64,000 nt of DNA from positions 2,048,001 through 2,112,000 of the forward strand of contig OZ244799.1 of the NCBI GenBank assembly GCA_965219955.1. The letters are read 5' to 3'. The notes beneath the pieces were generated by a model that saw nothing but the letters and a program-made list of their open reading frames with translations, was not told where the DNA came from and searched no databases. Of the stretch, positions 3,719 to 41,925 are shown piece by piece. The DNA comes from a bacterium. GTDB taxonomy: Bacteria > UBA8248. Every line of letters begins with the position of its first letter. The first letter of the stretch is position 1. The position numbers were made by a program, and so were the translations under genes.

Positions 3719-4183
3719 CTACGATGCGCCGGTTTTCTTTTTACGGTCGGTGTATTCCTTGAAATATCCCGCGATAGAGGAAGCCTCCCAGTCAAAATCA
3801 ATGTCGCGCGCTTTTTGAAGCACTTCGTCTCCGCTCAGGCCTTCTTCTTCGGCCAGATGAACAAGCGAGCAAATCCCGGCTCGCCTCACGCCTTTTCAGT
3901 GAACGTAAACCAGTCCGTCTTTCCTGGCTTCACTGAGTTTTTGGTGGATTTCCGCCGATAACTCATCGCTTATGTTGTCGGCAGTCGCAGGTACATGCAA
4001 GAAGTTCATACCCAGTTCATGCGCCGCCTCTCTCTCCGCATCGGGCGGAAGTTCCGGTTCTTCCTCATCTGCGGAACGAACATTCACCAGGGTTTTTATC
4101 CCTTTATTCGCCAGACTCTCCATATCCTTCCGCCCCGGCTGGCTACCGAACACGAGATTATCCGCCAATTCGATGTAGTCCAT
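3719..4183 (-). CDS. DUF442/PTP-fold (sulfurtransferase/phosphatase-like) protein, probable selenoprotein (UGA 3896-3898 = U96), 154 aa
   Basis: N-terminus GSQP...GIKTLVNVR...E...GMNFLHVP is typical of DUF442. The track ORF stops at VYVH; the frame continues U-KGVRRAGICSLVHLAEEEGLSGDEVLQKARDIDFDW... to TAG at 3719-3721, giving H-U-x4-R in place of H-C-x4-R. Confidence 0.8.
3863..3886 (-). promoter_or_regulatory. Candidate SECIS hairpin
   Basis: UGA+9 nt then AGGCGAGC-CGGGATTT-GCTCGCTT; loop G about 19 nt after UGA. Confidence 0.6.
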
Positions 4184-4206
4184 ACCCTTTTTCCTCGACG
4201 ATAGTT

Positions 4207-5049
4207 TCAGACTCGTTGCACCAGCTCCCGACAGCGAAGCAGGCAGGTTACTTTTTCATCTTCTCCATCACGCTTATAAATTCCAAGCAAATTGTTGAGC
4301 ATTCTCTCCAAGATACGGCGAGGAGGGGTTTCCTGTAAGAACCGCATATCGAAATGATACCCGAGTCCACGCAGAATCGCCGCGCAATCCCCCACGCTCA
4401 GGCGTTTCCCCCTATCGAAGGGGTCCAGAAAAATGGGCTCCTCATCACCTTGGTACTTCACGATAAAATGTCCCGGCATTCCGACTCCGTGAAACGGAAG
4501 TCCCAACCGTGCGCCAAGAATCAAATACAAAGCGGAAAGTGATATTGGAATGCCCCGTCTGCGCTCCAGCACACGATCCATAAAGCTGTTCTGCGCATCA
4601 TAGTAATTGTCCCGTTCGCCATCGAAGCGAAGCTCCCCGTGTAGATATTCGACGACTTCGGTGACAATGGCGTCGGCTTTATTTATACCCACCAAACGTC
4701 CACGCAAATGATTCTCCATCTTCAGCAAATCGTCTTTTTTCGTCTCCATGTTTTCGAGAGGATGGCCGAAAGACGCCAGCAAGAAGCAAGCATCCTCCAG
4801 ATCCACATCTTCAACCGAGGAAAGAGACCAGTCCGAAAAAGCGATTTCGATCTGTCTGTAATGGAACTCCATAAGCGATGACGGCAGCATGACATCGCTT
4901 ACCTCACGATTTTTCAGCATGTGCAGGAGTCTTTTCTGCTCTTTGGTCGAGAATTCCGAAACCTGTCGGTCCAAGGCCGACACCACCCGCGGTGAACCAT
5001 CATCCAACAAGCGGCAAACGGCCTCTAATTGCGAGTCACTCAACGACAA
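4207..5049 (-). CDS. SirB1/transglutaminase-like family protein
   Basis: YYDAQNSFMDRVLERRRGIPISLS..Y, GVGMPGHF, DPF motifs. Confidence 0.85.
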   Translation of the reverse strand: MSLSDSQLEAVCRLLDDGSPRVVSALDRQVSEFSTKEQKRLLHMLKNREVSDVMLPSSLMEFHYRQIEIAFSDWSLSSVEDVDLEDACFLLASFGHPLENMETKKDDLLKMENHLRGRLVGINKADAIVTEVVEYLHGELRFDGERDNYYDAQNSFMDRVLERRRGIPISLSALYLILGARLGLPFHGVGMPGHFIVKYQGDEEPIFLDPFDRGKRLSVGDCAAILRGLGYHFDMRFLQETPPRRILERMLNNLLGIYKRDGEDEKVTCLLRCRELVQRV

Positions 5050-5153
5050 AATGCCACTCCCCGGTTAGTGAGCGTCTTCCCCTATCTCAGCCATTGAAAT
5101 ATGGTATTATCATTCGAACTAATCCACAATCCGCGCTCGCCAGGAGGAATTGC

Positions 5154-6779
5154 ATGTCTACGTATGCCGACGTTGTGGCGGAAGTCCTTCAAGACGCGGG
5201 CATCGAACTCATTTTCGGGGTTCCTGGAAGTTTAAGTTCCGTCGAACTCATCGAAGCAGCGAGAAAGCGCGGCATTCGCTACATCCTCTGCAGCAACGAG
5301 AGCAGCGCGGCCGTGAAGGCGGGAACGTATGGCATCATGACGGGACGACCGGGGGTCGTGAGTACGGGCGTCGGTCCGGGGGCGGCTGCCGTTCTCCATG
5401 GCGTAGCGAACAATTTTCTCGAGCGAGCGCCGTGCCTCATTTTGACCGATCGCTTCTCCGACGAGCAGTTTCGCCGTCAAGGACGGCAAAAACTCGATCA
5501 GGATCGTTTATTTCTTCCAATCACGAAAGGTACGATCAAGCTCGCGAAAGACAACGCTTCGGTAGCCATCAGGCGGGCACTGGCTCTGGCCGTAGAAGGG
5601 AGGCCGGGCCCCGTGCATGTAGACCTCCCCTACGACGTCATGCTGGCAAACGCCGAAGAAAGCGATTTTCCACCCAAGTCAAACCCCAAAAAGTATGTTG
5701 GCCGCACCGGTTCCGCCCACCCGGGCATTACGGCAACTCTCAACGCAGTCTCGGAGTCGAAAAACCCGATAGTCATAGCGGGACTCCAGGTAAACCGCTC
5801 AGGGCGAGAGGCGGAAAAGGAGTTCGTATCTTTCGCCGAGAAACTCGGAGCGCCTGTTCTCGCCGCACCATCAGCGAAGGGCGTCTTGCCGGAACAGCAT
5901 CCCCTCGCCATGGGAACCTTCAGAGGCGCGCCTTCCGAGCGGGAATTGATAGACAAGTCGGACTTATTTCTTTTGGTAGGCTTCGATACGGTGGAAGTAT
6001 TCGCTCCCGGATTTTGGGACTACCCCCAAAAGGTGATCAATCTGGATGAAGTGCCGCATCTCGATGATTTGATTCGGCCGGAAATTGAAGTCGTCGGCCA
6101 CCTTGCCGACATCCTCAGAGAGTTGAGCGCCTCCGTCTCTTCCAGCCATGCCTGGAACACCGAGGAGATGGATTCTTACAAAAAAATGAGGCAATCCGCG
6201 TTGTTCCCTACCGGGGAAGGCTTGATGCCCGGCGCCGTTATCCGAATCGCACGGGAATACCTCCCCGATAACGGCATCATGACCGCGGATGCAGGAAGCC
6301 ACAAAGTCCTGGCCAACGACATCTGGGAGACGCGACGCCCTCTGGGTTACCTGACCTCCAGCGGACTGGGTTCGATGGCCGTTGCCACGCCGGCCGCCAT
6401 GGCCGCCAAATTAACTGAACCAGACACTCCTGTCGTTTGCCTCACCGGGGACGGGGGGTTTCTCATGCGGATTGGCGATATGGAAGTCGCCGTTCGCGAA
6501 AACATCCCCTTCGTCACCGTCGTATTCAACGACCGCTACCTGAACCTGATCAAAATCAAACAGGACAACCGCTCTTTCCCGCGTCTTGGCACCGAGTTCT
6601 GTGATTCCGACTATGCATCCGTGGCGAAAGGACTGGGTTGTGAGGGCGAGAGAGTTTCTACAGAAGAGGAATTGAAAGACGTACTCAAGCGCGCATTCTT
6701 GTCTGCAAAACCCTGGGTCATCGACGCCGTCATCAATCCCGATGGCTATGTAGGCTCAAAAGATGTTCGTGCGGAATAA
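5154..6779 (+). CDS. Thiamine pyrophosphate-binding enzyme (acetolactate synthase-like)
   Basis: IFGVPG, GRPGPVHVDLP, GDGG...FND TPP motif; AGGAGG RBS before ATG 5154. Confidence 0.88.
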   Translation: MSTYADVVAEVLQDAGIELIFGVPGSLSSVELIEAARKRGIRYILCSNESSAAVKAGTYGIMTGRPGVVSTGVGPGAAAVLHGVANNFLERAPCLILTDRFSDEQFRRQGRQKLDQDRLFLPITKGTIKLAKDNASVAIRRALALAVEGRPGPVHVDLPYDVMLANAEESDFPPKSNPKKYVGRTGSAHPGITATLNAVSESKNPIVIAGLQVNRSGREAEKEFVSFAEKLGAPVLAAPSAKGVLPEQHPLAMGTFRGAPSERELIDKSDLFLLVGFDTVEVFAPGFWDYPQKVINLDEVPHLDDLIRPEIEVVGHLADILRELSASVSSSHAWNTEEMDSYKKMRQSALFPTGEGLMPGAVIRIAREYLPDNGIMTADAGSHKVLANDIWETRRPLGYLTSSGLGSMAVATPAAMAAKLTEPDTPVVCLTGDGGFLMRIGDMEVAVRENIPFVTVVFNDRYLNLIKIKQDNRSFPRLGTEFCDSDYASVAKGLGCEGERVSTEEELKDVLKRAFLSAKPWVIDAVINPDGYVGSKDVRAE

Positions 6780-6944
6780 TGAAAATTTTTTGCTTGACAC
6801 AAACCTCTCAACAACGCATGTTATACTCTATCTCGTTCGTATAGCTTAGGGGGATTGTTCATTTCCCTGTGAATCAGAGCCCAGGCAGGGGCTGGGCATG
6901 ATATCCTCGACCTCATGAGGGGTCTCCGCGCGGGAGGATTGTAG

Positions 6945-7151
6945 GTGCCAGAGGGAACAGTCAAGTGGTTTAGCGACAAAAAGGGGTATGGCTTCATTTC
7001 TCGGGAAGATGGTGACGACATCTTCGTTCACTTCTCAGCCATCGTTGCGGATGGATTCAAATCACTGAAAGAAGGTGAAAAGGTCACATTCGAGATCACC
7101 CAAGGTCCCAAAGGGCTTCAGGCGGCGAATGTAACCAAACTGGAAGAATAA
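6945..7151 (+). CDS. Cold-shock protein (CspA family)
   Basis: [32 protein letters not shown]; GGAGG RBS before GTG. Confidence 0.95.
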
Positions 7152-7189
7152 CGTTCCTCTCTATCATCGTACCTCTCGACTGGGAAAAG

Positions 7190-8545
7190 CTACGCGCTTT
7201 CTCGAACATACTCTAAAACCGTCTCTGCGGCTTTATCCCCGCTTCGCACCGCTCCTTCTACGGTGGCCGGCAAACCTGTGCGAGTCCAATCTCCAGCAAG
7301 AAAAAAACCCTCAATCGGTGTTCTGGTATCTAACCGGTAATTTTGCTCCGCCACCCCGTTCGCCCAGGTAGCGGCGCGCTCCCGCACCACCAAAATATCT
7401 CGAATACGGTTACGGGGAATCATGCGATTCAAGCAATCCCTCGCAGACGACTCGATGATCGACCGCTTCTCAGATGCGATGGAATCCTCCGCCCCGGCCA
7501 ATAGACATACCAGGTTTTCCGCACATTTCCCGCCAGTTTCAAGTCGAAACAACCAGTCCCACTCCTCACCCACTATTGCCTCAAAAGGAGGCCCCTCATC
7601 CGGTTCTTCAAGCCAGAAATATGCGCTGGCGATAGGCCCGGGGCGTAGTTTTCCCAGATTCGAAAAAAGTGATTGCTGACCGAGTTCGCTGCCTAGCAAT
7701 CTGCCCAAAACGTCGGGTGGCACGGCGGAAATGACTGCGGCTGCGGGTAAAGTCTCTCGCTCCCTTACCATCACACCGTTCATTTTTGAATCATTGACCT
7801 CAAAACCGACTGCGGGTTGCTGAAGCCTCACCTCTCCACCAAGGTGCCGGATGCGTTGGGCCGCTCTGTTCGCCCACAGCGTACCCAATGCCTTCATCGG
7901 CACCCCCAAGGCGGCTCCCTTCGGCCCATCGGCAAAGGCTTCCCGAATCACCGCCTTGAACAATTCCGCACTCCCCAGTTCCAAAGGCAAGTTCAACACC
8001 GCGCGTGCAAACGGCTCCCAAAACCAGCGCACCGCCTCATTCTTCTGGCCAAGGTCCTCCAGCATGTCACTCATGGATTCATCCGGGTTCTCATCGCCCG
8101 ATTTGGAAACAATCTTCGAAAGACCTCTCAAAAGATTTATTTTTTCCAAAAAGCGGGGTCCACGCCATTTGAGCAAGCCTTGAAGTTGCGCAAAAACCCC
8201 TCCTCCCTCTGGAAATGACAACTGCGTCCGTCGGGTCGACCCCGCTTTCCGAATACGGTAGCCCACTTCCAGGGAAGGGGAGAAAAAAATATCATCGGCG
8301 GCGCCCACTCTTTCCAACAATGAGCGCAATGCCGGATTGGCCGCCATGAACAAATGCGGGCCCCAGTCCAACTCCATGTCCGTGGATGAATGCTTGAAAC
8401 TGCGCGCCCGGCCACCGAGAAACTTCCCGGCCTCGAGCACCACAACCTTGACGCCAGATTCGGCGAGGCGCAAAGCGGCGGACAGGCCCGCTGCGCCGGC
8501 TCCGATAATGATGACCGGCCTCTCGGATCCGCCCAGCTCAGACAT
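7190..8545 (-). CDS. hpnE: Hydroxysqualene dehydroxylase HpnE
   Basis: GAGAAGL FAD motif, GGRARSF, LAGDWT.TGLPATVEGAVRSG; directly follows the hpnC/hpnD fusion. Confidence 0.85.
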   Translation of the reverse strand: MSELGGSERPVIIIGAGAAGLSAALRLAESGVKVVVLEAGKFLGGRARSFKHSSTDMELDWGPHLFMAANPALRSLLERVGAADDIFFSPSLEVGYRIRKAGSTRRTQLSFPEGGGVFAQLQGLLKWRGPRFLEKINLLRGLSKIVSKSGDENPDESMSDMLEDLGQKNEAVRWFWEPFARAVLNLPLELGSAELFKAVIREAFADGPKGAALGVPMKALGTLWANRAAQRIRHLGGEVRLQQPAVGFEVNDSKMNGVMVRERETLPAAAVISAVPPDVLGRLLGSELGQQSLFSNLGKLRPGPIASAYFWLEEPDEGPPFEAIVGEEWDWLFRLETGGKCAENLVCLLAGAEDSIASEKRSIIESSARDCLNRMIPRNRIRDILVVRERAATWANGVAEQNYRLDTRTPIEGFFLAGDWTRTGLPATVEGAVRSGDKAAETVLEYVRESA

Positions 8546-10705
8546 CTACGCTTCCAGAAAACAGCGAAGCGCTTCTAGTAGTTTTTCCCTGGACTTCAAA
8601 GAGGGGCGATAATCCATGTGCCGAAAATCATTCTTCTCCATCTCACTCAGAAGTCTCCGATAAATTCGGCCCATGATTCTCGCGGGAAGAAGGTTCCCTG
8701 TCTTCTCGTGACTCAAGGCTTCGTTCGCTCCCTCGTAGTATTCACGCGCTCGATGCGCCAAGGACCGAAGAAGGCTTAAAACCTCGGAAGTATCGTTTTT
8801 ATATCTCAAATCGGAGACCGTTACGCCATATTTCTCCATTTCGCTTCCGGGAATATAAATGCGCCCTTCCTCGGCATCTTCCCAAACGTCTCTCAAAATG
8901 TTCGTCATCTGCAGCGCCCTGCCCAAACAAACGGCGTAGTCGTTGGCGAATTCCGATTTCGCCTCGAAGATGCCCAGGCACGCCAGCCCTACTGCGGAAG
9001 CCACCTTGTCACAATAATTTTCAAGGTCTGACAAATTTTCAAATCGACTATCCTCCAGATCCATCGCCACCCCGTCACAAATCGCCCGGAAATGTTCCGG
9101 CGGCAAGTCGTATTTTCTCGACGCCCATGCGAGTTCCCCGATTATCGGGTGGGATGGACTCTCCTCGCCCAACTGATCCAGCGCCTCTTTCCATTCGCGC
9201 AACGTGGTTTTCTTGCCGGATATCTCACCCGGCTCATCGGCGATGTCGTCGGCCATGCGGCAATACGCGTAAACCGCCGTGATGGCGCGCCTTTTCTCCG
9301 CCGGCAGGCTGAAAAAAGACAGATAAAAATTCGACCGGCTCGCGCGAATGAACCAGCGGCAGTATGCGCGGTTCAACCCTTCTTCGGCATGCCGATCCAC
9401 ATTGGATTCGAGTCGATAGACCGGGCGAAACACCGCGAGCAACGATTTGGCCTTATCCCGGCCATTCAAAAGCGGAGATCCCGCGCAGACGTTCCATTCC
9501 GCACGGGAAATGGCGTCAAGCGCCGCAATGCCGCCGCGCCAAATCGCGCGAAGCTCACGGCCCAATGCGCCGCGGGTGCGGTACAAAAGAGGCAGGCCCT
9601 GCCTGAAGAGGCGCTTCGTCCTTTTTATCTGAAAAACCAGGAACGCTCGAAGCTGAGGCGTCGCCGCGTCGGCAAGCAAATCATCCTCGGAGACGGAGAA
9701 TCTTTTCATCTCATCCTGAGGCATATAGATAATGCCTCGCTCGGCGTCTTCTTTCACATCTTGCAAGTGATTCGCAATCTGCAAGGCCGTGCAGATGGCA
9801 TCTGACGCGCGAAGGGCCTCTTCATCACGTATCCCGTGCAGCATGAGAACGATTCGCCCGACGGGATCCGCCGATCGGCGACAATAATCGAGCAAGGCTT
9901 CATAGTTCGGATACCGGAGGACTGTGACGTCCTGTTTGAATGCCGACAGCAAATCCCGAAAAGGCTGCAAGGGCAAATCGAATTGCTGAATCGTGTCGGA
10001 GAGCGCAATGAAAACGGCTGTTTCCGCAACTCCTTGCTGGGCCAATACGAGTTTTTCTTCCCACTCATCAAGGCGCGCAAGTCGCTCCCGGGCGGGCTCT
10101 GTCGAATCCGCGATATCATCCGCACCCCTGGCGAACGCATATACCGCGGCAACGTGCGGTCTTATCTTCGCCGGAAGCAACTTCGAGGCGACGGGAAAAT
10201 TCTCGTAGTGGCCGACTACGATTTTCATGCACTCATCATAAGCGGCGCTTAAATCAGCCTCTGAAACATTTTTTGCCTCTTTGTCTGAATCCCGTGTCTC
10301 CTCGCCATTCATGAGAGATTCTATCAACTGCGCATCCGCGGGCAGGAAATCAAACTCCCCCAATGAGGCAGGATGCACCCACTCGTGTTCCGCTACCCCC
10401 AAATTCTCCGCCACTCCGCTTTCCCACTCACAATCATAAAAGCGAAGGTGGACGTCCCTGTCTGGATAACGGTGTCGTGTCTCCCAATGAAGACGGCCAA
10501 CGCGCACATCGATCCCTAATTCTTCGCAAATTTCCCTTTGCAATGCTTCCCGGGGATTCTCGCCGTACTCAATTTTGCCGCCGGGAAACTCCCAGAAGCC
10601 CGGCATATGTCCGCCCTCCGGGCGCTGGCAGATGAGAATGCGTCCCTCGCTCCGGACAATCCCGGCAACGACGCTTAGCTCTAAAACGGCAACTTCGTCC
10701 TTCAT
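8546..10705 (-). CDS. Triple fusion: MutT-like Nudix + HpnC + HpnD (squalene synthesis)
   Basis: Nudix box GGKIEYGENPREALQREICEELG; HpnC-type HYENFPVAS/DDIAD/LQIANHLQD; HpnD-type SNFYLSF/AYCRMADDIAD/LQMTNILRD; one 719-aa ORF. Confidence 0.85.
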   Translation of the reverse strand: MKDEVAVLELSVVAGIVRSEGRILICQRPEGGHMPGFWEFPGGKIEYGENPREALQREICEELGIDVRVGRLHWETRHRYPDRDVHLRFYDCEWESGVAENLGVAEHEWVHPASLGEFDFLPADAQLIESLMNGEETRDSDKEAKNVSEADLSAAYDECMKIVVGHYENFPVASKLLPAKIRPHVAAVYAFARGADDIADSTEPARERLARLDEWEEKLVLAQQGVAETAVFIALSDTIQQFDLPLQPFRDLLSAFKQDVTVLRYPNYEALLDYCRRSADPVGRIVLMLHGIRDEEALRASDAICTALQIANHLQDVKEDAERGIIYMPQDEMKRFSVSEDDLLADAATPQLRAFLVFQIKRTKRLFRQGLPLLYRTRGALGRELRAIWRGGIAALDAISRAEWNVCAGSPLLNGRDKAKSLLAVFRPVYRLESNVDRHAEEGLNRAYCRWFIRASRSNFYLSFFSLPAEKRRAITAVYAYCRMADDIADEPGEISGKKTTLREWKEALDQLGEESPSHPIIGELAWASRKYDLPPEHFRAICDGVAMDLEDSRFENLSDLENYCDKVASAVGLACLGIFEAKSEFANDYAVCLGRALQMTNILRDVWEDAEEGRIYIPGSEMEKYGVTVSDLRYKNDTSEVLSLLRSLAHRAREYYEGANEALSHEKTGNLLPARIMGRIYRRLLSEMEKNDFRHMDYRPSLKSREKLLEALRCFLEA

Positions 10706-10720
10706 CCCATCTCCATGAGC

Positions 10721-11554
10721 TTAACCCTGCGCAGCCTCAGGCTCCATATCATCCGGCAACCGTCTCAAGACACTGGAAAACACGATGGGTTCCGCCATGG
10801 GTACCGCCTTGGACAGTTCTTTTTCATCTGCAAAATACTCGCCCGGCAGGACCAATCCCGGCATCCGCAACTCGACCGAATCCTTTGAGAACGGCCATGG
10901 GGATATTTCCAGATCATCGGTGTTTGCGGTTTTCACTTTCAACCCACCCTGAATCAAGGGGTGGACTGCGGCATCGGGCGGGGTAATTTCCGGCGCCCGG
11001 CACGCCAACAGGGATAATGTATCGCAAACCCCGAGCAAAGACACGGAATTTTCGATCGCATCTACGTGCTTCGGCTCAATCAGGGCGTCCAACTCTTTCT
11101 GCCGTTTCGATTCAGCGTGAATGAACCCGTTCAGCACCTTGGAAACTTCCAGCGGGGCGCCTCTTCTCCCACCTGCTGCGAGCGAAGAGAAGTGGAGGCT
11201 GACCAAATATCCGGAAAACGGATGGAAGGAAGCGCAAGAATCGATACCCTTCGACCATATTTCCACCGCTTTGTCCGCCGTGATGCCGAAAAAACTGTAA
11301 GGCAGTTTCGTCAGCGCATCCCACCTCGGGGTGGCGTCCGAGCGGCACCACCCGACGTCATGATTGTCGATGGCGAACAAGACTTTCTCTGTGAGTTCAT
11401 CCGGCGGTGAGGGTAGCGATTCAATGCCTATCCAATTTCGCGCAATCGTACCCGCGGCCCGGGCGTGGTCATGTTGAGAGATGAGACGAACATGGTTATC
11501 TCGCGGACAAACAATCATTTGAAACACCAAAAAACGGCGGAGAATACTTTCCAA
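10721..11554 (-). CDS. DUF3891 family protein
   Basis: ISQHDHA, HDVGW, SLHF, PWPF motifs; true start may be the ATG of MIVCPR. Confidence 0.7.
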   Translation of the reverse strand: MESILRRFLVFQMIVCPRDNHVRLISQHDHARAAGTIARNWIGIESLPSPPDELTEKVLFAIDNHDVGWCRSDATPRWDALTKLPYSFFGITADKAVEIWSKGIDSCASFHPFSGYLVSLHFSSLAAGGRRGAPLEVSKVLNGFIHAESKRQKELDALIEPKHVDAIENSVSLLGVCDTLSLLACRAPEITPPDAAVHPLIQGGLKVKTANTDDLEISPWPFSKDSVELRMPGLVLPGEYFADEKELSKAVPMAEPIVFSSVLRRLPDDMEPEAAQG

Positions 11555-13248: not shown

Positions 13249-13881
13249 ATGAGTGAGTTGAAAGAACCGATCGTTGTGGTGAAATACTCGGACTACACCT
13301 GACCATTTTGCTATGTCGCCACCGTGGGTGGCACGCCCGTGATCGAAGAAGACCCCGACGTCGTCGTCGAGTGGGTCAGTTGGGAGGGGAGACCCCCCGG
13401 CCAGGAGTTCGCCGGCTACTCGCCGGAGCAGAAACAGGAAAGTTACGAGAACAACCACAAACCTCTCGCCGAGAAGTACGACGTGCCCATCCGGGTGGCG
13501 GGTGGCGACTACCGCACCACGAACCTCCACATGGCCACCTATTACGCCCGCGACAAGGGGAAGTTCAAGGAATTCCGGAATCGCTGCTACAAGGCCCGCT
13601 GGGAGGACGACCTGAATCTCGAGGATTTGGACGTCATCGCCGGTCTCGGTCAGGATGTCGGCCTGGACGGTGAGGAAATCAAGGCCGTCATCGCCGAGGG
13701 ACGCTACATCGGCGCGCTCCACAGCCAGCGCGCCCAGGGAAAAGGGTTGGGCATCTTCGGCATCCCCACGTTCGTGGTGGAGGGGAAGCTCTTCTGGGGC
13801 AAAGACGTCATCGACGACGTCAAGGACGAGGTCGCGCGCGTGAAGCAGGAGCGCATCGAGAAGGAAAAAGAAGAGAGCTAG
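13249..13881 (+). CDS. DsbA/FrnE (HCCA isomerase-like) thioredoxin-fold protein, probable selenoprotein (UGA 13300-13302, U-P-F-C), 210 aa
   Basis: GGAGG RBS, then MSELKEPIVVVKYSDYT-U-PFCYVATV, in frame with track ORF 13324-13881 (GIFGIPTFVVEGKLFWGKD). Matches D-Y-x-C-P-F-C-Y. Confidence 0.85.
13315..13334 (+). promoter_or_regulatory. Candidate SECIS hairpin
   Basis: GT-C-GCCACC-GTG-GGTGGC-AC; loop G 22 nt after UGA. Confidence 0.6.
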
Positions 13882-14479: not shown

Positions 14480-15240
14480 GCCTTTTCCCCCTGACAAGGA
14501 GTTGTTGAAAAATTCCTAATTTCGTGATTCCACATATAGAGCCGACCATGGAGGGATGAAACTTTACTCCTCCCTTGTGGAGCGCCAATCAATCACTCCC
14601 CCCTTGAGGGGGCTGTTGAAAAACCCCGATGAGGGAGGGTTTGTTGTAGGGGCCGCATACATGCGGCCCATTGTTGGAACGGGAAAAACCAGGGTCGCAT
14701 ATATGCGACCCCTACAATCTCCGCACAAGGTGTTGGTGCAGGGGTACCATACACGCGGCCCTACGGGTTCATCTTGCGTCGGGTGAAGGGCATCCTTCGA
14801 TACGCGGTTTCACCGCTACTCAGGATGAAGGAGATGTGAGGACTTTTTCAACAGCCCCTTGAGGGGGGGGAGTCGAAGAGGTCGAGCCTTGGCGAAGGCC
14901 GATTCGGTGGGGGGTGAATCGCGTTTTACCCGCTCCGAATTATACCCCCCACCAGTTCGCTTTCGGGCTTACGCCCTCAGCTCACTGACTCCCCCTCAAG
15001 GGGGGAGTGGTTCCTTTCTTCTCGGTTGCCGATGACACTCAAGGGGGGAGGGAATCCCGATCATCGAATTGTTCGCCGTAGGGACAACCCTCCGTGGTTG
15101 TCCTTCGTCGGGGCGTCAGGACGACAGGCGCGGAGGCCTGCCCCTGCAAAACCAACCCCCTACAACCCTCCGTCAGGGGCGCTTTCAGCCCTCCCCTGCG
15201 CCAAGGTGTTTCTCGTTCGCCTTTTTGCCCTTTCATCCCC
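14480..15240. repeat. Mosaic cluster of palindromic repeats (GTAG-type REPs, CCCCCTTGAGGGGG units, MITE ends)
   Basis: GTAGGGGCCGCATACATGCGGCCC, GTAGGGACAACCCTCCGTGGTTGTCC and ACTCCCCCTCAAGGGGGGAGT units recur at 17.7, 24.5, 36.6, 44.2 and 60.6-61.4 kb. Confidence 0.8.
14609..14858. mobile_element. MITE (15-bp TIR GGGGCTGTTGAAAAA, TSD TTGAG) with REP cargo
   Basis: Perfect TIRs; TTGAG at 14604-14608 and 14859-14863; an uninterrupted copy of the target palindrome is at ~24521-24549. Confidence 0.8.
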
Positions 15241-15290
15241 GATTCGATAAGCTGTTTCATCTGCATCCACTATCTTGAGGAGAGAACCCG

Positions 15291-16883
15291 ATGGCGCAGT
15301 TCGATGGTGTTGTGATCGGCGCGGGACATAACGGCCTGGTGTGCGCGGCGTATCTCGCCCGGGCGGGGCTGAAAATCGCCGTTCTGGACAGCGAACCCGA
15401 AATCGGCGGCGGCTCGAGCACCAGGGAATTCCTGCTGCCCGGCTACCAGTCCAACATGCACGCGAATTTCTTCATCGGTCTGGACGATTTTCCAATCGTC
15501 AAGGACCTGGAACTGAATAAATACGGGTTCAAGTGGCTCACCCCCGACGTGCAGCACGCCGCGCTGTACCGCGACGGCACGGCGGTTCTGCTTCACCGGG
15601 ATGCTGAGAAAAGCGCAGCTTCCATCTCGCGATTTTCGAAAAAAGACGCAGAATCATACGCCTACCTTCACCGGCGATTCGCCGTGGAACTCGCCCCTCT
15701 CATGCGCAGTTTCCTGTTTCATCCACCGCTGCCTCCGGAGGAAATCGTCTCCCGGATGGAGGGCGACGCAGGCCGGGAGATCCTGAGCTTTGCGAAAATG
15801 TCGATTTTCGAGGCCATCGAATCGCATTTCGAGCATCCCAAAATGCGGGCCTTGTTCTTCCTGTTCTCCCACGCCATCACGGTGGAGAACGCGCCGGGCA
15901 CGGGTATCTTTCTCCCGAGCCTGTTCTCCACCCACACGACGCTCGGCCTCCCGGTGGGGGGCGCCATCCAACTGCCCCTGGCGCTCGAGCGCATCGTCAC
16001 CCAGAACGGAGGCGTCGTCCTGAGAAGCACCCACGTGCGCGAGGTGATTCGGGAAAACGGCCGCGCGACGGGCGTGATGCTCGATGGCGGAGAGAAGATG
16101 ATGGCGACGCAATTCGTCGCTTCGAGTCTCAACGCGCCGGCATCCATCAAAATGGCGGGAGAAGACGCGTTCCCCGATGAGGTCAACGAGAAGGTGCGAA
16201 ACTGGGACTGGGGCTTCCATTCCCTGAGCACGCTGCATCTCGCCCTGGCTGAAATCCCGCGATATGCCGCGGAGGATTTCGACCCCGACGTAGGCGAGGC
16301 CTACAACATCATCTTCGGGGCGGACTCCGGCGAGGAGATGGCCGAGAACACCGAAGAGCGCAGAAACGGCCTCATCCCGTCGAACCCGATGGGCAACGGT
16401 TCATGCAACAGCCAGCACGACCCCTCCTATGCGCCCCCGGGCGGCCACGTCGCTTTCTGGTGGCCGGGCGCGCCCTATGAGCTCAAGGACGGCGGCCCCC
16501 GGAAGTGGGATGAGATAAAAGAGGAATACACCGAACGCCTCGTGGACGTATGGCGGGGCTACGCTCCGAACCTCACGCCGGACAACGTCCGCGCGGCGAA
16601 GCTCTACACGCCGCTCGACGTGGAACGCGGGAACAAGAACATGATCCGCGGCGGCGTGCGCATGGGGGCGTACATTCCCGAACAGTTGGGGATCAACAGG
16701 CCCCATCCCCTGCTCTCCGGCATGCGGACGCCTCTGGAGGGGTTCTATCTGTGCAGTTCGAGCTGCCAGGGGGGTGGTCTGAACGGGGCGCCCGGCTACA
16801 ACGCCGCCGGCGTGATCGCGGATGATTTGGGCGTCGAGAAATGGTGGGAGCCGCTTCCTGCGCCTGCGGCGCCCGCAGGCTAG
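15291..16883 (+). CDS. Phytoene dehydrogenase-like FAD oxidoreductase (COG1233 type)
   Basis: GAGHNGLVCAAYLARAG; C-terminal RTPLEGFYLCSS...GGG..GAPGYNAA. Confidence 0.85.
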   Translation: MAQFDGVVIGAGHNGLVCAAYLARAGLKIAVLDSEPEIGGGSSTREFLLPGYQSNMHANFFIGLDDFPIVKDLELNKYGFKWLTPDVQHAALYRDGTAVLLHRDAEKSAASISRFSKKDAESYAYLHRRFAVELAPLMRSFLFHPPLPPEEIVSRMEGDAGREILSFAKMSIFEAIESHFEHPKMRALFFLFSHAITVENAPGTGIFLPSLFSTHTTLGLPVGGAIQLPLALERIVTQNGGVVLRSTHVREVIRENGRATGVMLDGGEKMMATQFVASSLNAPASIKMAGEDAFPDEVNEKVRNWDWGFHSLSTLHLALAEIPRYAAEDFDPDVGEAYNIIFGADSGEEMAENTEERRNGLIPSNPMGNGSCNSQHDPSYAPPGGHVAFWWPGAPYELKDGGPRKWDEIKEEYTERLVDVWRGYAPNLTPDNVRAAKLYTPLDVERGNKNMIRGGVRMGAYIPEQLGINRPHPLLSGMRTPLEGFYLCSSSCQGGGLNGAPGYNAAGVIADDLGVEKWWEPLPAPAAPAG

Positions 16884-17281
16884 GTCTCCGCGCCGGGGAT
16901 CATCACCACCGCTTCGATTTCCACGATGTCGTCCTGGTTCAGCCTGCTCACTTCCACGATGGTGCGCGTGGGCAGGTTCGGCCCGAAGTATTCCTCATAC
17001 AGCCGGTTGATTGTCGGGCGGTGGGCATCCATGTCCCGCACGTAGACGACGGTGGAAACGAACGTGGCGAGCGACCCGCCCGCCGCCTCCGCAATGGCTT
17101 TCAGGTTCTCGAAAGTTCTTCTGGTACGCGCCTCGATGGTTCGCTCGACGAGTTCCCCGGAATCCGGGTCGATGCCGCGCTGGCCGGCGATGAACAACAG
17201 GTTCCCCACGCGGCGCGCCTGGACGAAGGGTCCGGTGGGCGAAGGGGCCTGCTCTGTCTGGATGGTTTGAGGCGACTCCAA
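16880..17281 (-). CDS. RidA (YjgF/YER057c/UK114) family protein
   Basis: AP.P.GPFVQA, LFIAGQ, PTRT.VEVSRL...VEIEAV; TTG start at 17281. Confidence 0.88.
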   Translation of the reverse strand: MESPQTIQTEQAPSPTGPFVQARRVGNLLFIAGQRGIDPDSGELVERTIEARTRRTFENLKAIAEAAGGSLATFVSTVVYVRDMDAHRPTINRLYEEYFGPNLPTRTIVEVSRLNQDDIVEIEAVVMIPGAET

Positions 17282-17349
17282 GGCGTCTCCCCGGTTTGCA
17301 AGCAGGGAATAAGCTGCGCGATTGGTTTTCCTGCCGCGTGGCGCCGCTA

Positions 17350-17571
17350 TTATTTCTTGCCTTTCGGCAACTCCGCCGGAAAAGCGATTTTGAGCCATTG
17401 CTGCGTCAGTATGGTCGCGGCGTTCTCGTCTCTTCCGGGAATGAACGCGATGGGTTCTTTGGGCTGAGCGCCCTCCTGATCGAGCATATAGACGTCGACG
17501 CCGAACCCGTACAGGTCATGATCGCGGGTTTCGAGATTGTACTTCACCCCATTGTTCGTCAGTTGATTCAT
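17350..17571 (-). CDS. Small hypothetical protein
   Basis: 73-aa ORF with protein-like composition and AAAGGA RBS; no family recognised. Confidence 0.55.
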   Translation of the reverse strand: MNQLTNNGVKYNLETRDHDLYGFGVDVYMLDQEGAQPKEPIAFIPGRDENAATILTQQWLKIAFPAELPKGKK

Positions 17572-18212
17572 CTGGGATCATCCTTTCAAGCTCACTGGCG
17601 AAAAACTCGACGATGAGAGTTCCAACTCCCGCTATCATAGCCGATGGCTTGAGCCCCCGTAAAGTTTGGAGGCAGTCTCAAACGCATCCGTTCTTGGGGT
17701 TGTTGGAAAAGCCTGGATAAACGAGGGTTTGACTCGTCCGATAAATGAGCAAGATTCACTCCCCCTTGAGGGTCTGGCTTCCCGAGGGGAAAGCCAGACG
17801 GTGAGGTAAGGGCGCAAGCCCGCAAGCGAACCGGTGGGGGGTATAATTCGGAATGGCGATAAAACGCATTTTACCCCCCACCGCATCAGCCTTCGCAAAA
17901 AACGCTCGGCTTCTTCGTCTGGCTTTCCCCTCGGGAAGCCAGACCCTCAAGGGGGGAGTGATTCTTCTCTCTCGTTGGTTGGCAATGTTGTTCAAGGGCA
18001 ATGTCCGCAGCCGCGCAGATGAGCTGAATTCCGAGCGAGAAGCCTTTTTCAACAGCCCCGACAAGGGGGGTAGGGGAGTTGGTTTTCGGGGTGAGCGGGC
18101 GGGAGACGCAAAAGAACCTCATCCCGAGTAGGCCCGAAGGGCCGTATCGAGGGAGCGCCCCTTCGACAGGCTCAGGACAGGCCCTTCGATACGCCCTTCG
18201 ACAAGCTCAGGA

Positions 18213-18857
18213 CTACTCAGGGTGAGGGGTATCGGGCGGCGCGGCGGTGCGGCGGATGAGTTCCTTGAGCGCCTCCATGTTCTCGCGGTGCTGATCTTTG
18301 TGCTCCTCGCGCTGGGTGGCGAGCGCGTTCATGGTCGCGACGTGCTGAGCTTTTTGATCCTCGCGTTGCGCGGCGAGCGCGTTCATGGTCGCGATGTGCT
18401 GATCTTTTTGGTCCTCGCGCTGGGCGGCGAGCGAACTCATAGTGGCGCGGTGTTGATCTTTGTGCTCCTCGCGCTGTGTGGCGAGCGCGTTCATGTTCTC
18501 GCGGTGCGCGCGTTCCATCGCTTCCATGGTTGCGCGGTGCTGGTCTTTTTGCGCCTCGCGCTCGGCGGCGAGTGCCTCCATGTTCTCACGGTGCGTGCGC
18601 TCCATCGCCTCCATGGTTTCGCGGTGGCGGCTGTCGAGCGCCTTCATGGTTTCGCGGTGCTGGGCGTCGCGGTGGCGCGCGGCCTGGCGCATGAAGTAGA
18701 GGCCGTAGGCGATCAGGGAGCACTGCGCGGCCCCCACGAGCGCGGCGACCCACACCGAGGCCTGCTGCGCTACGAGGGAGGCTTTCTGGATGGCCAGGGA
18801 TGATTCCTGGATGGCGAGACTTGCGGCTTCGTATTCCGTCATTTGGTTTTCCCCCAC
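18213..18857 (-). CDS. Membrane-anchored coiled-coil protein with tandem HRENMEALAxQREEHKDQ repeats
   Basis: One hydrophobic segment, then ~18-aa (54-nt) and 11-aa repeat units; likely start MTEYE at 18843. Confidence 0.7.
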   Translation of the reverse strand: MGENQMTEYEAASLAIQESSLAIQKASLVAQQASVWVAALVGAAQCSLIAYGLYFMRQAARHRDAQHRETMKALDSRHRETMEAMERTHRENMEALAAEREAQKDQHRATMEAMERAHRENMNALATQREEHKDQHRATMSSLAAQREDQKDQHIATMNALAAQREDQKAQHVATMNALATQREEHKDQHRENMEALKELIRRTAAPPDTPHPE

Positions 18858-19198: not shown

Positions 19199-19413
19199 CG
19201 TCATTCCGGCGAAAGCCGGAATCCATTTTGACTTTTCACCAGGCGGGGTGGCCACGACCTTGTTCTTACGCGGCGTCCGGATGCGGAATCCAAAGAATTC
19301 GCCTTTCGTTTTTGTATTCGATTCCGCTCCTCCCCGCTCGGGAGCAAAGACGTCCGAGCGAGGGGGCGAAAAGGCAAAGGCGAAAATGGATTCCGGCTTT
19401 CGCCGGAATGACG
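19199..19413. repeat. Inverted pair of CGTC-type REPs (CGTCATTCCGGCGAAAGCCGGAATCCA)
   Basis: Copies at 19199-19225 and 19387-19413; identical pairs at 44586-44802 and 60799-60940. Confidence 0.85.
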
Positions 19414-19522
19414 GCCAAAACCAAAAACCGGGCGGAGGCGCAGGCATCACTTTCTCCTCCAGGACTTTTTCAACAACCCCGTTCTTGACCCTGTTTGGGG
19501 CCTATGATAAACGCAAAACCCT

Positions 19523-24409: not shown

Positions 24410-24822
24410 GGGGCTGTTGGAAAAGCCCCCGGGAAGCGATTTCGGGAATTGAGGCAACCGACGAGAGAGGAAAATCACTCCCCCTTGAGGGTCATCGCTA
24501 GGGAAGCAGGAAGTGGATTCACTCCCCCCTTGAGGGGGAGTCGAAGAGGCCGAGCGTTTTTTGCGAAGGCCGATTCGGTGGGGGGGAATGCGTTTTATCG
24601 CCACCCGAATTATCCCCCCACCGATTCGCTTGCGGGCTTACGCCCTTAGCTCATCGACTCCCCCTCAAGGGGGGAGTGGTTGATTAGCACTCTGCAAGGG
24701 AGGAGTAAAGTTTCATCCCTTCATGGTCGGCTACATACGCCGAATCACGGAATCAGGGCTTTTTCAACAATCCCCTCAAGGGGGGAGTGATTCCTCTCTC
24801 CTCGGGCTTTTTCAGCAGGCGC
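24410..24822. mobile_element. MITE/REP mosaic
   Basis: GGGGCTGTTGGAAAA left end; TTTTTCAACAATCCC and degenerate TTTTTCAGCAGGCGC right ends; interior homologous to the 14.5-15.0 kb and 36.6 kb repeats. Confidence 0.65.
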
Positions 24823-34931: not shown

Positions 34932-35133
34932 TGAAGATGCTGGAGTCATAAATTTTTTCTTGAGCCTGACGGATGATTCCAGCGCAAGACGACAATCGAG
35001 ATTTCCGCTCGAGTGTCCATCAACCTCGATAGTCGTTCCCACTGAAAATGCGACTGACAAACCCATCCACGCCAACTTGCTTCCCGTTCGTGCTATAATT
35101 CCAAGTGAATCCACCACTCAAGGAGGACCTTTC

Positions 35134-35448
35134 ATGGCCGTTACCGCAGTTGTCAATTTCGCGCTTCCCGAAGGAAAGACCGAGGAGGAGCTGGTTGCCG
35201 GTTTCGAGAGTTCGACGACTCTCTACCGCGACGTGCCCGGCCTATTGCGCAAATACTACCTGCTGTCCGAGGACCGTCGGACGGGTGGCGGGGTCTATAT
35301 CTTCGAGACGCGCGCCGACGCCGAGCGGGTCCACGACGAGGTGTGGCGCGCCCGGCTGCGCGAGCGCATGGGCGTCGAGCCCGACGTCCGGTACTTCGAC
35401 TCGCCCGTCATCGTCGACAACGAAGCCAGGGCCGCTTCGACCGCATAG
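35134..35448 (+). CDS. YdhR-like dimeric alpha/beta-barrel protein, paralog 1
   Basis: VPGLLRKYY, GGVY.FE; AGGAGG RBS. Confidence 0.85.
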   Translation: MAVTAVVNFALPEGKTEEELVAGFESSTTLYRDVPGLLRKYYLLSEDRRTGGGVYIFETRADAERVHDEVWRARLRERMGVEPDVRYFDSPVIVDNEARAASTA

Positions 35449-35460
35449 GGAGGACGCTTC

Positions 35461-35778
35461 ATGGCCGTCACCGCAATCGTTCGCTTCGCGCTTCCCGAGG
35501 GAAAAACGCAAGAAGATATGGCCGCGGCCTTCGAGCACTCGGCCCCTCTCTACCGCGACGTGCCGGGCCTGGTGCGCAAATACTATCTGGTCTCGGACGA
35601 CGTGCGCACCGGGGGCGGGGTCTATCTGTTCGAGTCGCGCGAAGACGCCGAGCGGCTCTACGACGACGCCTGGCGCGCCGGGCTGCGCGAGCGTTTGGGC
35701 GTCGAGCCCACGGTCGAGTACTTCACCTCGCCCGTCATCGTGGATAACGAGATAGGGGCCATCTCCACGGCATCCTAG
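35461..35778 (+). CDS. YdhR-like dimeric alpha/beta-barrel protein, paralog 2
   Basis: Collinear tandem duplicate of the preceding gene. Confidence 0.85.
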   Translation: MAVTAIVRFALPEGKTQEDMAAAFEHSAPLYRDVPGLVRKYYLVSDDVRTGGGVYLFESREDAERLYDDAWRAGLRERLGVEPTVEYFTSPVIVDNEIGAISTAS

Positions 35779-36583: not shown

Positions 36584-36927
36584 GGGGTTGTTGACAAAGC
36601 CCTTGTAGAGCGACTTTGGTTGAGCGCACGTTTTTGCAGTTCACTCCCCCCTTGAGGGTCTGGCTTCCCGAGGGGAAAGCCAGACGATGAAGCCGAGCGG
36701 TTTTTGCGAAGGCTGAATCGGTGGGGGGTAAAATGCGTTTTATCGCCATTCCGAATTATCCCCCCACCGAATCGCTTTCGGGCTTACGCCCTCAGCTCTT
36801 CGACTCCCCCTCAAGGGGGAGTGATTCTCTTCTCTCTCGTCGGGTTGGCAATGTGTTCAAGGGAGAAATCCGCAGCCGCGCCAGCGGTAATCGATGCCGA
36901 GAGAGAAGGAACTTTTTCAACAACCCC
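36584..36927. mobile_element. MITE (TSD GATAG) inserted at a stop codon
   Basis: GGGGTTGTTGACAAA ... TTTTTCAACAACCCC; GATAG at 36579-36583 and 36928-36932. Confidence 0.8.
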
Positions 36928-37965: not shown

Positions 37966-38649
37966 TCACCCCGCCGCTCTCGCCAGAATCTCGCGGTAAC
38001 CCTCGTAGACCGCCTCCCCGTAGGCGGGCGGGGCGTGGACTTCGGTGAGCTTGCCGTCCTCTATCGTCTTGTCCGACGCGTAGGGGTTGAAGACGGCCTC
38101 TCCGCTCGGGAAGATGAGGGTGGGGCTCGTCATCGGCATGCCCTCTTCGTCCCTCAGGCGCATGGCTTCTCGATAGTCGACCATCACGCCCTCCGCGTAT
38201 GCGCCCGATTCCAGGTCCGCGCCCACTTTCGAGCCGTCGAGGCCCGCTTCTTCGGCCATCCCGCAAAGCACCTCGTCCTCATCCACGCGGCGTCCATCGT
38301 AGAAAAACCCTCGCCTGATATCGAGGTCGTAGACGCGCGCTTTCTCCGGGTCTTGCGCATAGGCGCTCGCGTAGGCCTGAAAGGCGCGTATGGTGGTGCG
38401 CAGGTATTCCTCGTGCGGCCAGCTTCTGCACGGGGAGAGCGGCTCCTGAACGGCTATCAGGGGCCATTCCTGGTCCACGATGTAGCGCGGCGCCGGGCGG
38501 TCGTTGATGACCTCCAGCGGGAACGCGCGCCATTTGAGATGCAGCCTGCCTTCGAACTCGGGCATCACCTTGTCCAGCCGCGCCGCGGCCATGTACGCCC
38601 AGGGTCAGTGGTATTCGTGAAATATCTCGACAACCGCCGCATCCGCCAT
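37966..38649 (-). CDS. DsbA/FrnE-like thioredoxin-fold protein, probable selenoprotein (UGA 38605-38607, U-P-W-A), 227 aa
   Basis: MADAAVVEIFHEYH-U-PWAYMAAARL, in frame with track ORF 37966-38592 (WRAFPLE, SPTL). U sits at the C-P-W position; GAGGG RBS. Confidence 0.8.
38575..38591 (-). promoter_or_regulatory. Candidate SECIS hairpin
   Basis: TGGCCGC-GGC-GCGGCTG; loop G 21 nt after UGA. Confidence 0.55.
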
Positions 38650-40891: not shown

Positions 40892-40908
40892 GCTTCTCTC
40901 CGGCTCTT

Positions 40909-41253
40909 TCAGTCTTTAGGCGCGAGTTCGTTCAGCTTCTCGACGCCGGGGGTGAAGATCTCCTCCAGAACGAGCGGCCCGTCGCCCGCGTTGCGCGTGG
41001 AGTGCTCCTGGTTCGGCGGAAAAACCACGACGCCGCCCGGCCCGAGGACCACCTCTTTCCCGCCGCACGCGAACCTCGCCGTGCCTTCGAGCACGATCGT
41101 CATCTGCTCGTTGGGGTGCGAATGGGGATTGTACATATCCACGCCGGCGTGAATCGTCTGGCGAAGCACGGTCAGCTTCTCGCCCGCCACCACGCGCTGA
41201 ATCCTCTCGCCGGTATCGTGCGCTTCCATCTCCTCGAAATTGTAATATTTCAC
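40909..41253 (-). CDS. Cupin domain protein
   Basis: HSHPNEQ...EG...PPNQEH cupin motifs; GTG start after GGAG. Confidence 0.85.
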   Translation of the reverse strand: MKYYNFEEMEAHDTGERIQRVVAGEKLTVLRQTIHAGVDMYNPHSHPNEQMTIVLEGTARFACGGKEVVLGPGGVVVFPPNQEHSTRNAGDGPLVLEEIFTPGVEKLNELAPKD

Positions 41254-41400
41254 GTTCTTCTCCACCCGAATGGATAAAACTTTACGGAAACCTGGACTGC
41301 AGGGCGGCATAGGCACCCGACTCATCGTATAGAAGTATTTGCATCCGCTCAAACCTTCTCCTAAAGTGTTCACACGCCGTCTTTTGCCTAGGAGACCCCC

Positions 41401-41925
41401 ATGAAGCGAACACTCATCTGCATCATCGCCATCGCCGCTCTCGCCGTGTTCTGGACGTTCTACCAGGCGGGCGCATCGGGACTCGGGCCCGGCGCGCAAG
41501 CGCCCGAACTCAAGGGCGGGCCCTGGATTGGCGGAGAGCCCGTGAAGCTCGCCGATCTGCGCGGCAAGGTCGTTCTCCTCGACATGTGGACGTTCGCCTG
41601 AATCAATTGCGTGCGGGAGATCCCCACGCTGCGTTCGTGGCACGAGCGCTATGAAGACAAGGGGCTGGTCATCATCGGAAACCACGCGCCCGAGTTCAAC
41701 TTCGACAGGAAAAAAGAAAACGTGAAAGAAGCCATGGCCAAGCTCGGCATCAAATACCGCGTCGTGCTGGACAACGACTTCACCAACTGGGACGCCTTTC
41801 AGAATCGCTTCTGGCCGACGAAATACCTGATCGACAAGAAAGGGATCGTGCGCTTCAAGACGATCGGCGAGGGCAACCACCAGCGCACCGAGGCGATGAT
41901 CATGAAGCTGCTCGCCGAAAAATGA
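41401..41925 (+). CDS. TlpA/DipZ-like exported thioredoxin, probable selenoprotein (UGA 41599-41601, U-I-N-C), 174 aa
   Basis: Two track ORFs join in frame: LRGKVVLLDMWTFA-U-INCVREIP...HAPEF...WPTKYLID...GEG. Matches the DipZ-type WTY.CINC motif; N-terminal signal/TM segment. Confidence 0.9.
41609..41629 (+). promoter_or_regulatory. Candidate SECIS hairpin
   Basis: GCGTG-C-GGG-AGAT-CCC-CACGC; loop G 18 nt after UGA. Confidence 0.6.

Follow-up and report, generated by a model that had tools for sequence, protein, structure and literature searches.

Four Likely Selenocysteine-Encoding UGA Codons, One of Them in a DUF442 Gene, in a 64-kb Genome Stretch from a UBA8248 Bacterium

We report here four dispersed genes, each with a single in-frame UGA that likely encodes selenocysteine (Sec), in a 64,000-nucleotide (nt) stretch of a bacterial genome of the GTDB lineage UBA8248 (assembly GCA_965219955.1, contig OZ244799.1, positions 2,048,001 to 2,112,000 of the forward strand). 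This whole stretch, hereafter the window, has a G+C content of 60.1% and zero N. The four genes (Table 1) encode, in order, a stand-alone DUF442 protein, two DsbA-like proteins, and a DipZ/TlpA-like protein. An earlier note on this DNA, made from the letters alone, had placed the four UGAs, described the frames as protein-like on both sides and the UGAs as occupying the catalytic Cys position of each family, and concluded that all four encode Sec. Our analysis supports it on each of these points. The TGAs were confirmed in the sequence, and reading through them yields one open frame in each gene. Codon scores are protein-like before and after the TGA, a Pfam domain crosses it in 4/4 genes (BLH_phosphatase/DUF442, DSBA, DSBA, and AhpC-TSA/Redoxin for genes 1 to 4, respectively), and codon-position bias is seen on both sides in genes 1 and 2. 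In alignments, the Sec residue (U) stands opposite Cys in 4/4, 1/1 (plus one "W"), 25/25, and 13/13 homologues of genes 1 to 4, respectively. Because U falls at an active-site Cys, the TGA is conserved in relatives of genes 1 and 2, the hairpins fit a published model, and TGA is still a true stop elsewhere in the window, Sec recoding is the best reading. We consider it very likely for genes 1 and 2, highly probable, if slightly less so, for genes 3 and 4, and likely for all four TGAs jointly, with hairpins resembling bacterial Sec insertion sequences (bSECIS).

By this mechanism, SelB with Sec-tRNA(Sec) would be brought to the ribosome by a bSECIS, an mRNA hairpin immediately 3′ of the UGA, and Sec would be inserted where homologues carry a nucleophilic Cys. 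The gene 1 product would be a cytoplasmic DUF442 sulfur transferase with the protein tyrosine phosphatase (PTP) fold and a rhodanese-like loop, in which Sec takes the place of the persulfide-carrying Cys. Gene 2 would encode a DsbA/FrnE-like UxxC oxidoreductase, and gene 3 would encode a DsbA-like single-selenol protein. Gene 4 would specify an exported UxxC reductase of the DipZ/TlpA type, and its translation would be coupled to that of a cytochrome b561 gene; a gene for a molybdopterin oxidoreductase lies farther downstream. We infer that the genome encodes SelB, tRNA-Sec, SelA, and SelD and that the residue inserted at the UGAs is Sec and no other; the biochemical roles of the four products are predicted from their sequences.

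Gene 1 encodes a stand-alone protein of the DUF442/TIGR01244 type, with the PTP fold and the active-site loop H-U-K-G-V-R-R. It scores 32.5 bits against Pfam PF04273, above the cutoff of 26.1, and lies below the cutoffs of NCBIfam TIGR01244 (49.1 versus 85.85) and Blh NF040641 (62.9 versus 625), both of which match residues 5 to 136. Cys homologues were taken from annotated plasmid records and comprise two "sulfur transferase domain-containing proteins" that stand alone and the N-terminal domains of two further proteins, annotated as Blh and "TIGR01244 family phosphatase." In all four, the invariant Cys of HC..G.R lies opposite U96, a position at which PDB 2f46 and TpbA also have Cys, and H95, C/U96, and R101 are invariant in 6/6 alignment rows. 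All 25 database relatives are fragments, and 23 of the 25 stop exactly at ...V[YF]VH before the TGA. In one 94-residue relative (P0031), the first ~55 residues are fused directly to the post-UGA C terminus (…GDEVLLKADEIGLDWAASSIGGYFEKF…), the active-site region including the UGA being deleted and the post-UGA part remaining in frame; this protein thus shows independently that the post-UGA frame is protein coding.

A scan of a genome collection with the gene 1 alignment found 17 related loci (68 to 98% protein identity, matching residues 1 to 150 or 1 to 154). TGA is present at codon 96 in 17/17 of them, followed by 53 to 58 more open, conserved codons. Upstream of the TGA, pairwise differences at codon positions 1/2/3 number 1897/1284/5259; downstream of it, they number 965/787/2256. 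This third-position excess on both sides indicates protein-level selection on both sides. Codons 97 to 149 contain zero indels among the relatives.

The AlphaFold model of gene 1, built with 17 sequences, is of moderate confidence (predicted local distance difference test score, 71; predicted template modeling score, 0.66). In the model, U96 appears to end a strand (residues 92 to 97) that is followed by a short loop and a helix (residues 102 to 113). Its Foldseek matches are PTP-fold proteins, namely, Tk-PTP (5z5b), the DUF442 protein 2f46, and TpbA, with template modeling scores of 0.5 to 0.6 and E values of 6e-5 to 7e-4. Aligned with TpbA, the C/U-x4-R loop is one residue shorter than the phosphatase Cx5R loop, and in the rhodanese/Cdc25 literature this shorter length marks sulfur transferases rather than phosphatases. 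In the window as in 17/17 loci, gene 1 comes after a transglutaminase-like gene, with ilvD facing it, whereas Cys homologues adjoin ArsR-type regulators, the sulfite exporter TauE, or a rhodanese. The protein shares its Pfam family, the length and position of the HCxxGxR loop, and a PTP-like fold with stand-alone sulfur transferases and with the DUF442 domain of Blh from Xylella/Agrobacterium, for which PMC5823870 describes demonstrated thiosulfate:cyanide and glutathione sulfur transfer. Unlike these Cys forms, it has Sec for the catalytic Cys, lacks a fused dioxygenase and ArsR/BigR, TauE, or rhodanese neighbors, and is about 25 to 31% identical to them. Judged from sequence, gene 1 may encode a cytoplasmic sulfur-relay (or selenium-relay) enzyme acting via an Se-S intermediate.

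Gene 2 encodes a DsbA/FrnE-like protein with the redox motif U-P-F-C and no evident signal peptide, scoring 95.9 bits against PF01323 (cutoff, 25.6). Two homologues cover U18, one with CPFC (P0206; 27% identity) and one with WPFC (P0181; 58% identity). Of the database relatives, 54/55 cover 90% or less of the query, and the eight short ones that were aligned begin 22 to 25 residues in, past U18. Because the 14-kb neighborhood of gene 1 is syntenic in all 17 loci, 16 of these also contain gene 2 (the remaining one, L002, is too short). TGA stands at codon 18 in 16/16 loci reaching the gene, at 91 to 98% protein identity; the UGA is thus kept in close relatives of both gene 1 and gene 2, conservation whose absence the earlier note had named as grounds for rejecting Sec. 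Differences by codon position among the 17 sequences, the window included, are 124/0/469 in codons 1 to 17 and 744/733/5369 after the TGA, and GGAGG lies upstream of the ATG in 17/17. By domain and motif, with Sec first in the redox pair, gene 2 resembles DsbA-like form 1 (PF01323, UxxC) in Table 1 of the 2026 prokaryotic selenoprotein catalogue (PMC13188914); the relatives analyzed here all come from one syntenic clade.

Gene 3 encodes a DsbA-like protein (46.4 bits against PF01323; cutoff, 25.6). The earlier note had correctly assigned gene 1 to the DUF442 HCx4R proteins, gene 4 to DipZ with CINC, and gene 3 to DsbA, and it had given the DsbA motif as CPxC; the motif in gene 3 is not such a pair but the single-selenol H-U-P-W-A, without a second Cys. 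An alignment was made of 27 of the 150 matches listed, namely, the two best and others starting by about query residue 10. Cys-Pro lies opposite U15 in 25/25 aligned homologues covering the column, mostly as [SA][DE]xxCP[WFY], and about half of these aligned Cys homologues also lack a second Cys. The two closest relatives among the matches listed (94% and 50% identity) are predicted to start at M20, just past the TGA. The Sec-Pro motif without a second Cys (EYHUPWA) matches DsbA-like form 2 of the same Table 1 (PF01323, DxxUP), with E in place of D, and gene 3 likely belongs to that form.

Gene 4 encodes a predicted exported thiol:disulfide oxidoreductase like the DipZ C-terminal domain and TlpA, with a hydrophobic N terminus and the motif F-A-U-I-N-C. 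It matches PF00578 (54.9 bits) and PF08534 (42.6 bits) and falls below every NCBIfam cutoff, including those of ResA, TlpA, WAxxUGC, and the selenoprotein-specific ResA-like NF041054 (24.5 versus 300 bits). Over the four proteins as a whole, all NCBIfam matches stay below threshold, those of selenoprotein-specific models included. PDB 2hyx (Mycobacterium tuberculosis DipZ) matches with an E value of 3e-41 and places CINC opposite UINC. In an alignment of 16 of the 120 matches listed (490 in all), the U67 column holds Cys in 13/13 full-length homologues (MWTF[GD]-C-[IYS]NC); the three closest relatives among the matches listed (93, 78, and 79% identity) are 103- to 104-residue pieces that start just past the TGA. 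Gene 4 resembles Prx-like, redoxin, and TlpA-type selenoproteins (PF00578, PF08534, cd02966; UxxC) as well as the Cys-form DipZ C-terminal domain, and unlike M. tuberculosis DipZ it is a stand-alone domain without the membrane part. At 41922-41925, an ATGA serves both as the end of gene 4 and as the beginning of a cytochrome b561-type gene. Downstream on the same (+) strand are a 97-residue hydrophobic open reading frame (ORF; 42915-43208) and a sulfite-oxidase/YedY-type molybdopterin oxidoreductase gene (43205-44014). The layout of 41922-44014 resembles an MsrPQ-like periplasmic repair module, here with a putative Sec-containing reductant of its own.

Across all four genes, public predictions for close relatives either end at the TGA or begin just past it, and Shine-Dalgarno-like sequences sit before the ATGs upstream of the TGAs and not before alternative downstream starts.

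The bSECIS model given in PMC13188914 comprises a loop of 3 to 9 nt, an upper stem of 4 to 16 bp, a G in loop position 1 or 2, a distance of 16 to 37 nt from the UGA, and an energy of ≤-7.5 kcal/mol. We coded this model in-house, separately from bSECISearch, for contiguous stems only. A compliant hairpin follows the UGA at 4/4 sites, versus 129/1916 TGA trinucleotides in the window (6.7%) and 3/21 TGA stops of called genes. The earlier note's description of these hairpins proved accurate in that the first loop G lies 18 to 22 nt past the UGA and in that the four have no sequence in common. They resemble the Escherichia coli fdhF type of SelB/SECIS recoding by geometry only, with a small apical loop bearing G in its first two positions within 16 to 37 nt of the UGA, the range of the model cited above. 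Two adjacent hairpins follow the gene 4 UGA, and either is a candidate SECIS: hairpin B passes the contiguous-stem model, and hairpin A, the one first noticed, passes only when a one-base bulge is allowed. The gene 4 hairpin region folds better than shuffled sequence (z = -3.06; 2/200 shuffles as good).

Conservation of the hairpins was followed in genes 1 and 2. In gene 1, seven stem pairs persist in 18/18 sequences, where the changes amount to five one-sided wobbles and no pair is broken, and the six least synonymously variable 10-codon windows, of 51, all start at codons 96 to 102, over the hairpin; this low synonymous change supports RNA constraint. In gene 2, the six core pairs persist in 17/17 sequences, with GC replaced by GU once. 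The stem codons are fixed at third positions, while any of the four nucleotides occurs as the third loop base, and the loop codon has the highest third-position entropy near the Sec codon (1.61 bits). Both patterns are as predicted for an RNA element overlapping coding sequence, in a clade too shallow for proof by covariation.

Several results weigh against Sec recoding. The hairpin regions of genes 1 to 3 fold no better than shuffles (z = -0.31, +0.48, and -0.12, respectively), and with three of the four regions no stabler than shuffles, the hairpins count through their position, model fit, and conservation, not their stability. Compensatory base-pair changes were found in 0/7 pairs of gene 1 and 0/13 pairs of gene 2 in the hairpin alignments; the 17 relatives form one shallow syntenic clade, so covariation cannot separate conservation of sequence from conservation of structure. 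For genes 3 and 4, conservation of the UGA rests on where gene callers start or end the predictions for relatives. One gene 1 relative (L010) has a second in-frame TGA (L010:10394-10396) in place of the otherwise invariant TGG of W132, a non-Cys position; the copy may be decaying, the TGA may stem from a sequencing error, or the product may be shortened. Finally, as the earlier note had said, the window holds none of the Sec machinery: ORF and RNA scans found no selA, selB, selD, or tRNA-Sec within it (52 ORFs scanned), and none lies in the ~6 kb of extra flank in the nearest relative, L001. Rfam at gathering thresholds gives two tRNAs only, whether or not it has a bacterial SECIS model not being established. 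The only tRNAs in the window are tRNA-Val and tRNA-Asn, and 7/17 related loci have no tRNA.

Some of these points bear on a mixed case, which we think unlikely, in which genes 1 and 2 are selenoprotein genes while gene 3, with its true start at M20, and/or gene 4, decayed or split into two pieces that recoding does not join, are not. The short public predictions for the closest relatives of genes 3 and 4 agree with it, as do the unremarkable stability of the gene 3 hairpin region and the mere 14 codons upstream of that TGA, whose coding score is modest (7.0 to 7.2). Yet a start at M20 or after the CxxC position would lose the whole active-site motif carried by 25/25 homologues of gene 3 and 13/13 of gene 4. 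The 66 codons before the gene 4 TGA score 29 to 32 and encode a signal-like N terminus, and their alignment with homologues extends as far as the motif; both genes have model-compliant hairpins, that of gene 4 in the sole region with a significant fold z-score; and at both it is the upstream ATG, not the downstream start, that has the Shine-Dalgarno-like sequence.

It is quite improbable that the UGAs are recoded as something other than Sec, whether through site-specific read-through, in which a suppressor or near-cognate tRNA would insert Trp, Cys, or Gly, or through partial reassignment in the lineage. The W written at the U position in P0181 would fit such recoding, but it is most simply the product of a gene caller's TGA=Trp table. 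The 50 called genes end in TGA (21), TAG (15), or TAA (14); with TGA the commonest true stop, the code is not reassigned, and global reassignment was ruled out. Moreover, all four sites fall on the active-site Cys, as is typical of Sec/Cys pairs; Trp or Gly there would destroy the motif, and each site has a hairpin at SECIS distance. That the TGAs are real stops, in pseudogenes, sequencing or assembly errors, or truly split genes, is extremely improbable even though standard gene callers treat them so and L010 has its extra stop, since the TGA recurs in the 17/17 and 16/16 independently assembled genomes, which excludes errors and pseudogenes for genes 1 and 2, the frames of these two genes are open, indel free, and under purifying selection on both sides, and it is not credible that errors would hit a catalytic Cys codon four times out of four.

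Sec recoding thus remains the preferred reading for the four sites, and the window was scanned for others. A codon-usage score, self-trained on the long ORFs of the window, was applied to every TGA in six frames. Strict thresholds recover the TGAs of genes 2, 3, and 4 together with 42909+, and lenient thresholds add gene 1 (3898), for 17 candidates in all. The TGAs at 18872-, 32855+, 42909+, 9803+, and 47074- and weaker candidates were rejected as ordinary stops before a separate same-frame gene or as lying in antisense frames; no compliant hairpin follows the TGA at 42909. There are 429 read-through segments in all. In a Pfam scan of the 93 one-TGA segments that lie outside called genes, in the gaps, no TGA was crossed by a domain, and the other 336, inside called genes, were judged by codon score alone. 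With those 336 segments so judged, our count of Sec-UGA genes in the window is four.

Table 1 Coordinates of the four genes, their Sec-UGAs and candidate hairpins, and the repeat-filled gaps (window positions; position 1 is the first letter)
Feature	Position	Strand	Description or basis
Gene 1	3719..4183	-	154 aa, U96, context VYVH-U-KGVRRAG; DUF442 sulfur-transferase gene (predicted)
Gene 1 Sec-UGA (likely), codon 96	3896..3898	-	Sequence and conservation in relatives
Gene 1 candidate bSECIS	3864..3885	-	GGCGAGC/GCUCGCU, loop CGGGAUUU, 17 nt after UGA; 8 bp in model scan
Gene 2	13249..13881	+	210 aa, U18, context SDYT-U-PFC; DsbA-like gene
Gene 2 Sec-UGA (likely), codon 18	13300..13302	+	Sequence and conservation in relatives
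Gene 2 candidate bSECIS	13318..13332	+	GCCACC / GUN / GGUGGC (loop GUG here), 6 bp, 21 nt after UGA
Gene 3	37966..38649	-	227 aa, U15, context HEYH-U-PWAY; DsbA-like gene
Gene 3 Sec-UGA (likely), codon 15	38605..38607	-	Sequence and codon-score scan
Gene 3 candidate bSECIS	38576..38590	-	GGCCGC / GGC / GCGGCU, 6 bp, 20 nt after UGA; single sequence
Gene 4	41401..41925	+	174 aa, U67, context MWTFA-U-INC; DipZ/TlpA-like gene
Gene 4 Sec-UGA (likely), codon 67	41599..41601	+	Sequence and codon-score scan
Gene 4 hairpin A (first noticed in the earlier note)	41609-41629	+	Bulged stem, loop AGAU, 16 nt after UGA
Gene 4 hairpin B	41631-41649	+	8-bp stem, loop GGC, 37 nt after UGA
Palindromic repeat gaps	14486-15171, 17761-18016, 19370-19435, 24482-24786, 36641-36881, 44196-44803, 55588-56165, 60556-60828, 61254-61338

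The larger intergenic gaps of the window are filled with dispersed G+C-rich palindromic repeats of several families, 40 to 127 nt long and in both orientations (Table 1). Repeat I1 is 125 nt long and 96% complementary, and repeat I9 consists of two perfectly inverted 40-nt copies separated by 115 nt. These repeats look like repetitive extragenic palindrome (REP) or miniature inverted-repeat transposable element (MITE) sequences, and their six-frame translations recur as pseudopeptides such as "...SPLRGLLKKP...." An ORF without a Pfam match (18213-18857, - strand) contains about five 54-nt tandem units at 18267-18623, detected as overlapping 108-nt copies, with a hydrophobic segment upstream; the motif that these units encode is 18 residues long and of the MEALAAQREEHKDQHRAT type. 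Two adjacent ydhR-like paralogues (34960-35778, + strand) have a common 300-nt direct repeat with 78% identity, and a highly acidic 416-residue ORF (50597-51847) has an internal 249-nt repeat (50945-51574). A HicA/HicB toxin-antitoxin pair within 49712-50381 (- strand) adjoins tRNA-Asn (49613-49687), with a UPF0175 antitoxin-like gene nearby (52075-52449, - strand). Third-position G+C is 0.56 to 0.62 in most long ORFs at 548-11554 (0.72 in ilvD), versus 0.76 to 0.92 in most later genes; this block is nonetheless syntenic in all 17 relatives. In L001, to the left of where the window begins, the Sir2 gene that is cut at the window start adjoins three acetamidase/formamidase (FmdA_AmdA) paralogues in tandem (14702-17548).

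The phenomenon, the mechanism, and the three families of genes 2 to 4 are already known. Table 1 of PMC13188914, within its 119 families and subfamilies, includes DsbA-like form 1, DsbA-like form 2, and several PF00578/PF08534/cd02966 UxxC families, and genes 2, 3, and 4 fit catalogued families by domain and motif. The same table names no PF04273, TIGR01244, DUF442, or phosphatase-fold family, and a full-text literature search for papers linking DUF442 or PF04273 to selenoproteins or selenocysteine gave no match, within a coverage that leaves out the family table of BSepDB and the majority of subscription journals. The nearest analogues in the catalogue, as tabulated, are the rhodanese-like selenoproteins, forms 1 to 5 (PF00581 and others), which also have a sulfur-transferase loop with Sec for the persulfide-forming Cys. 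They are functional analogues of unrelated fold and family (rhodanese, as opposed to PTP/DUF442), and gene 1 is not a member. A DUF442 selenoprotein therefore appears to be an uncatalogued family. Whether gene 1 represents a new selenoprotein family, and the first PTP-fold (DUF442) enzyme with Sec in a P-loop-like active site, we regard as evenly balanced. Were it so, the protein would probably be a sulfur or selenium transferase acting via a selenenyl-sulfide or perselenide intermediate.

The earlier note had also spoken of a hidden selenoproteome in a very Sec-rich genome. The genes are indeed hidden in the sense that gene callers truncate them, but such selenoproteomes are already catalogued. 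Among the ten bacteria ranked richest in selenoproteins in the BSepDB report (PMC13326102) are three metagenome-assembled genomes (MAGs) labelled Nitrospinota, Nitrospinaceae, or Nitrospinae (GTDB phylum UBA8248), with 48 to 54 selenoprotein genes. Where the titles of our related loci name a phylum (6/17), it is Nitrospinota or Nitrospinaceae, and these titles, like the source names of database matches that give a phylum, carry the same NCBI labels as those MAGs, though not necessarily the same GTDB group. The window alone has four likely selenoprotein genes, versus the six that define a "selenoprotein-rich" organism as worded in PMC5029168. That the whole genome is very Sec rich is an extrapolation in agreement with the BSepDB MAGs, a group to which it may belong. 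The co-occurrence of SelA and SelB COGs in many symbiont bins of several phyla, as described in PMC5649159, has no bearing on this genome and was not used.

In all four genes, the cut made by standard gene callers falls at the active site or beyond it, and public protein sets consequently contain only crippled fragments; correct reading restores the catalytic residues. A Sec form of DUF442 would extend Sec to a PTP-like fold and to an enzyme class outside the 119 families catalogued in Table 1 of PMC13188914, and gene 1 and its Cys forms would be a natural Sec/Cys pair for studying the effect of selenium on persulfide-transfer chemistry. If the new DUF442 family is real, an already Sec-rich lineage has selenoproteins that escape pipelines working by homology to known families. 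Catalogue-based counts for it (48 to 54 in MAGs with similar labels) would then be too low, and more families would come to light if these genomes were scanned de novo for UGA/Cys pairs.

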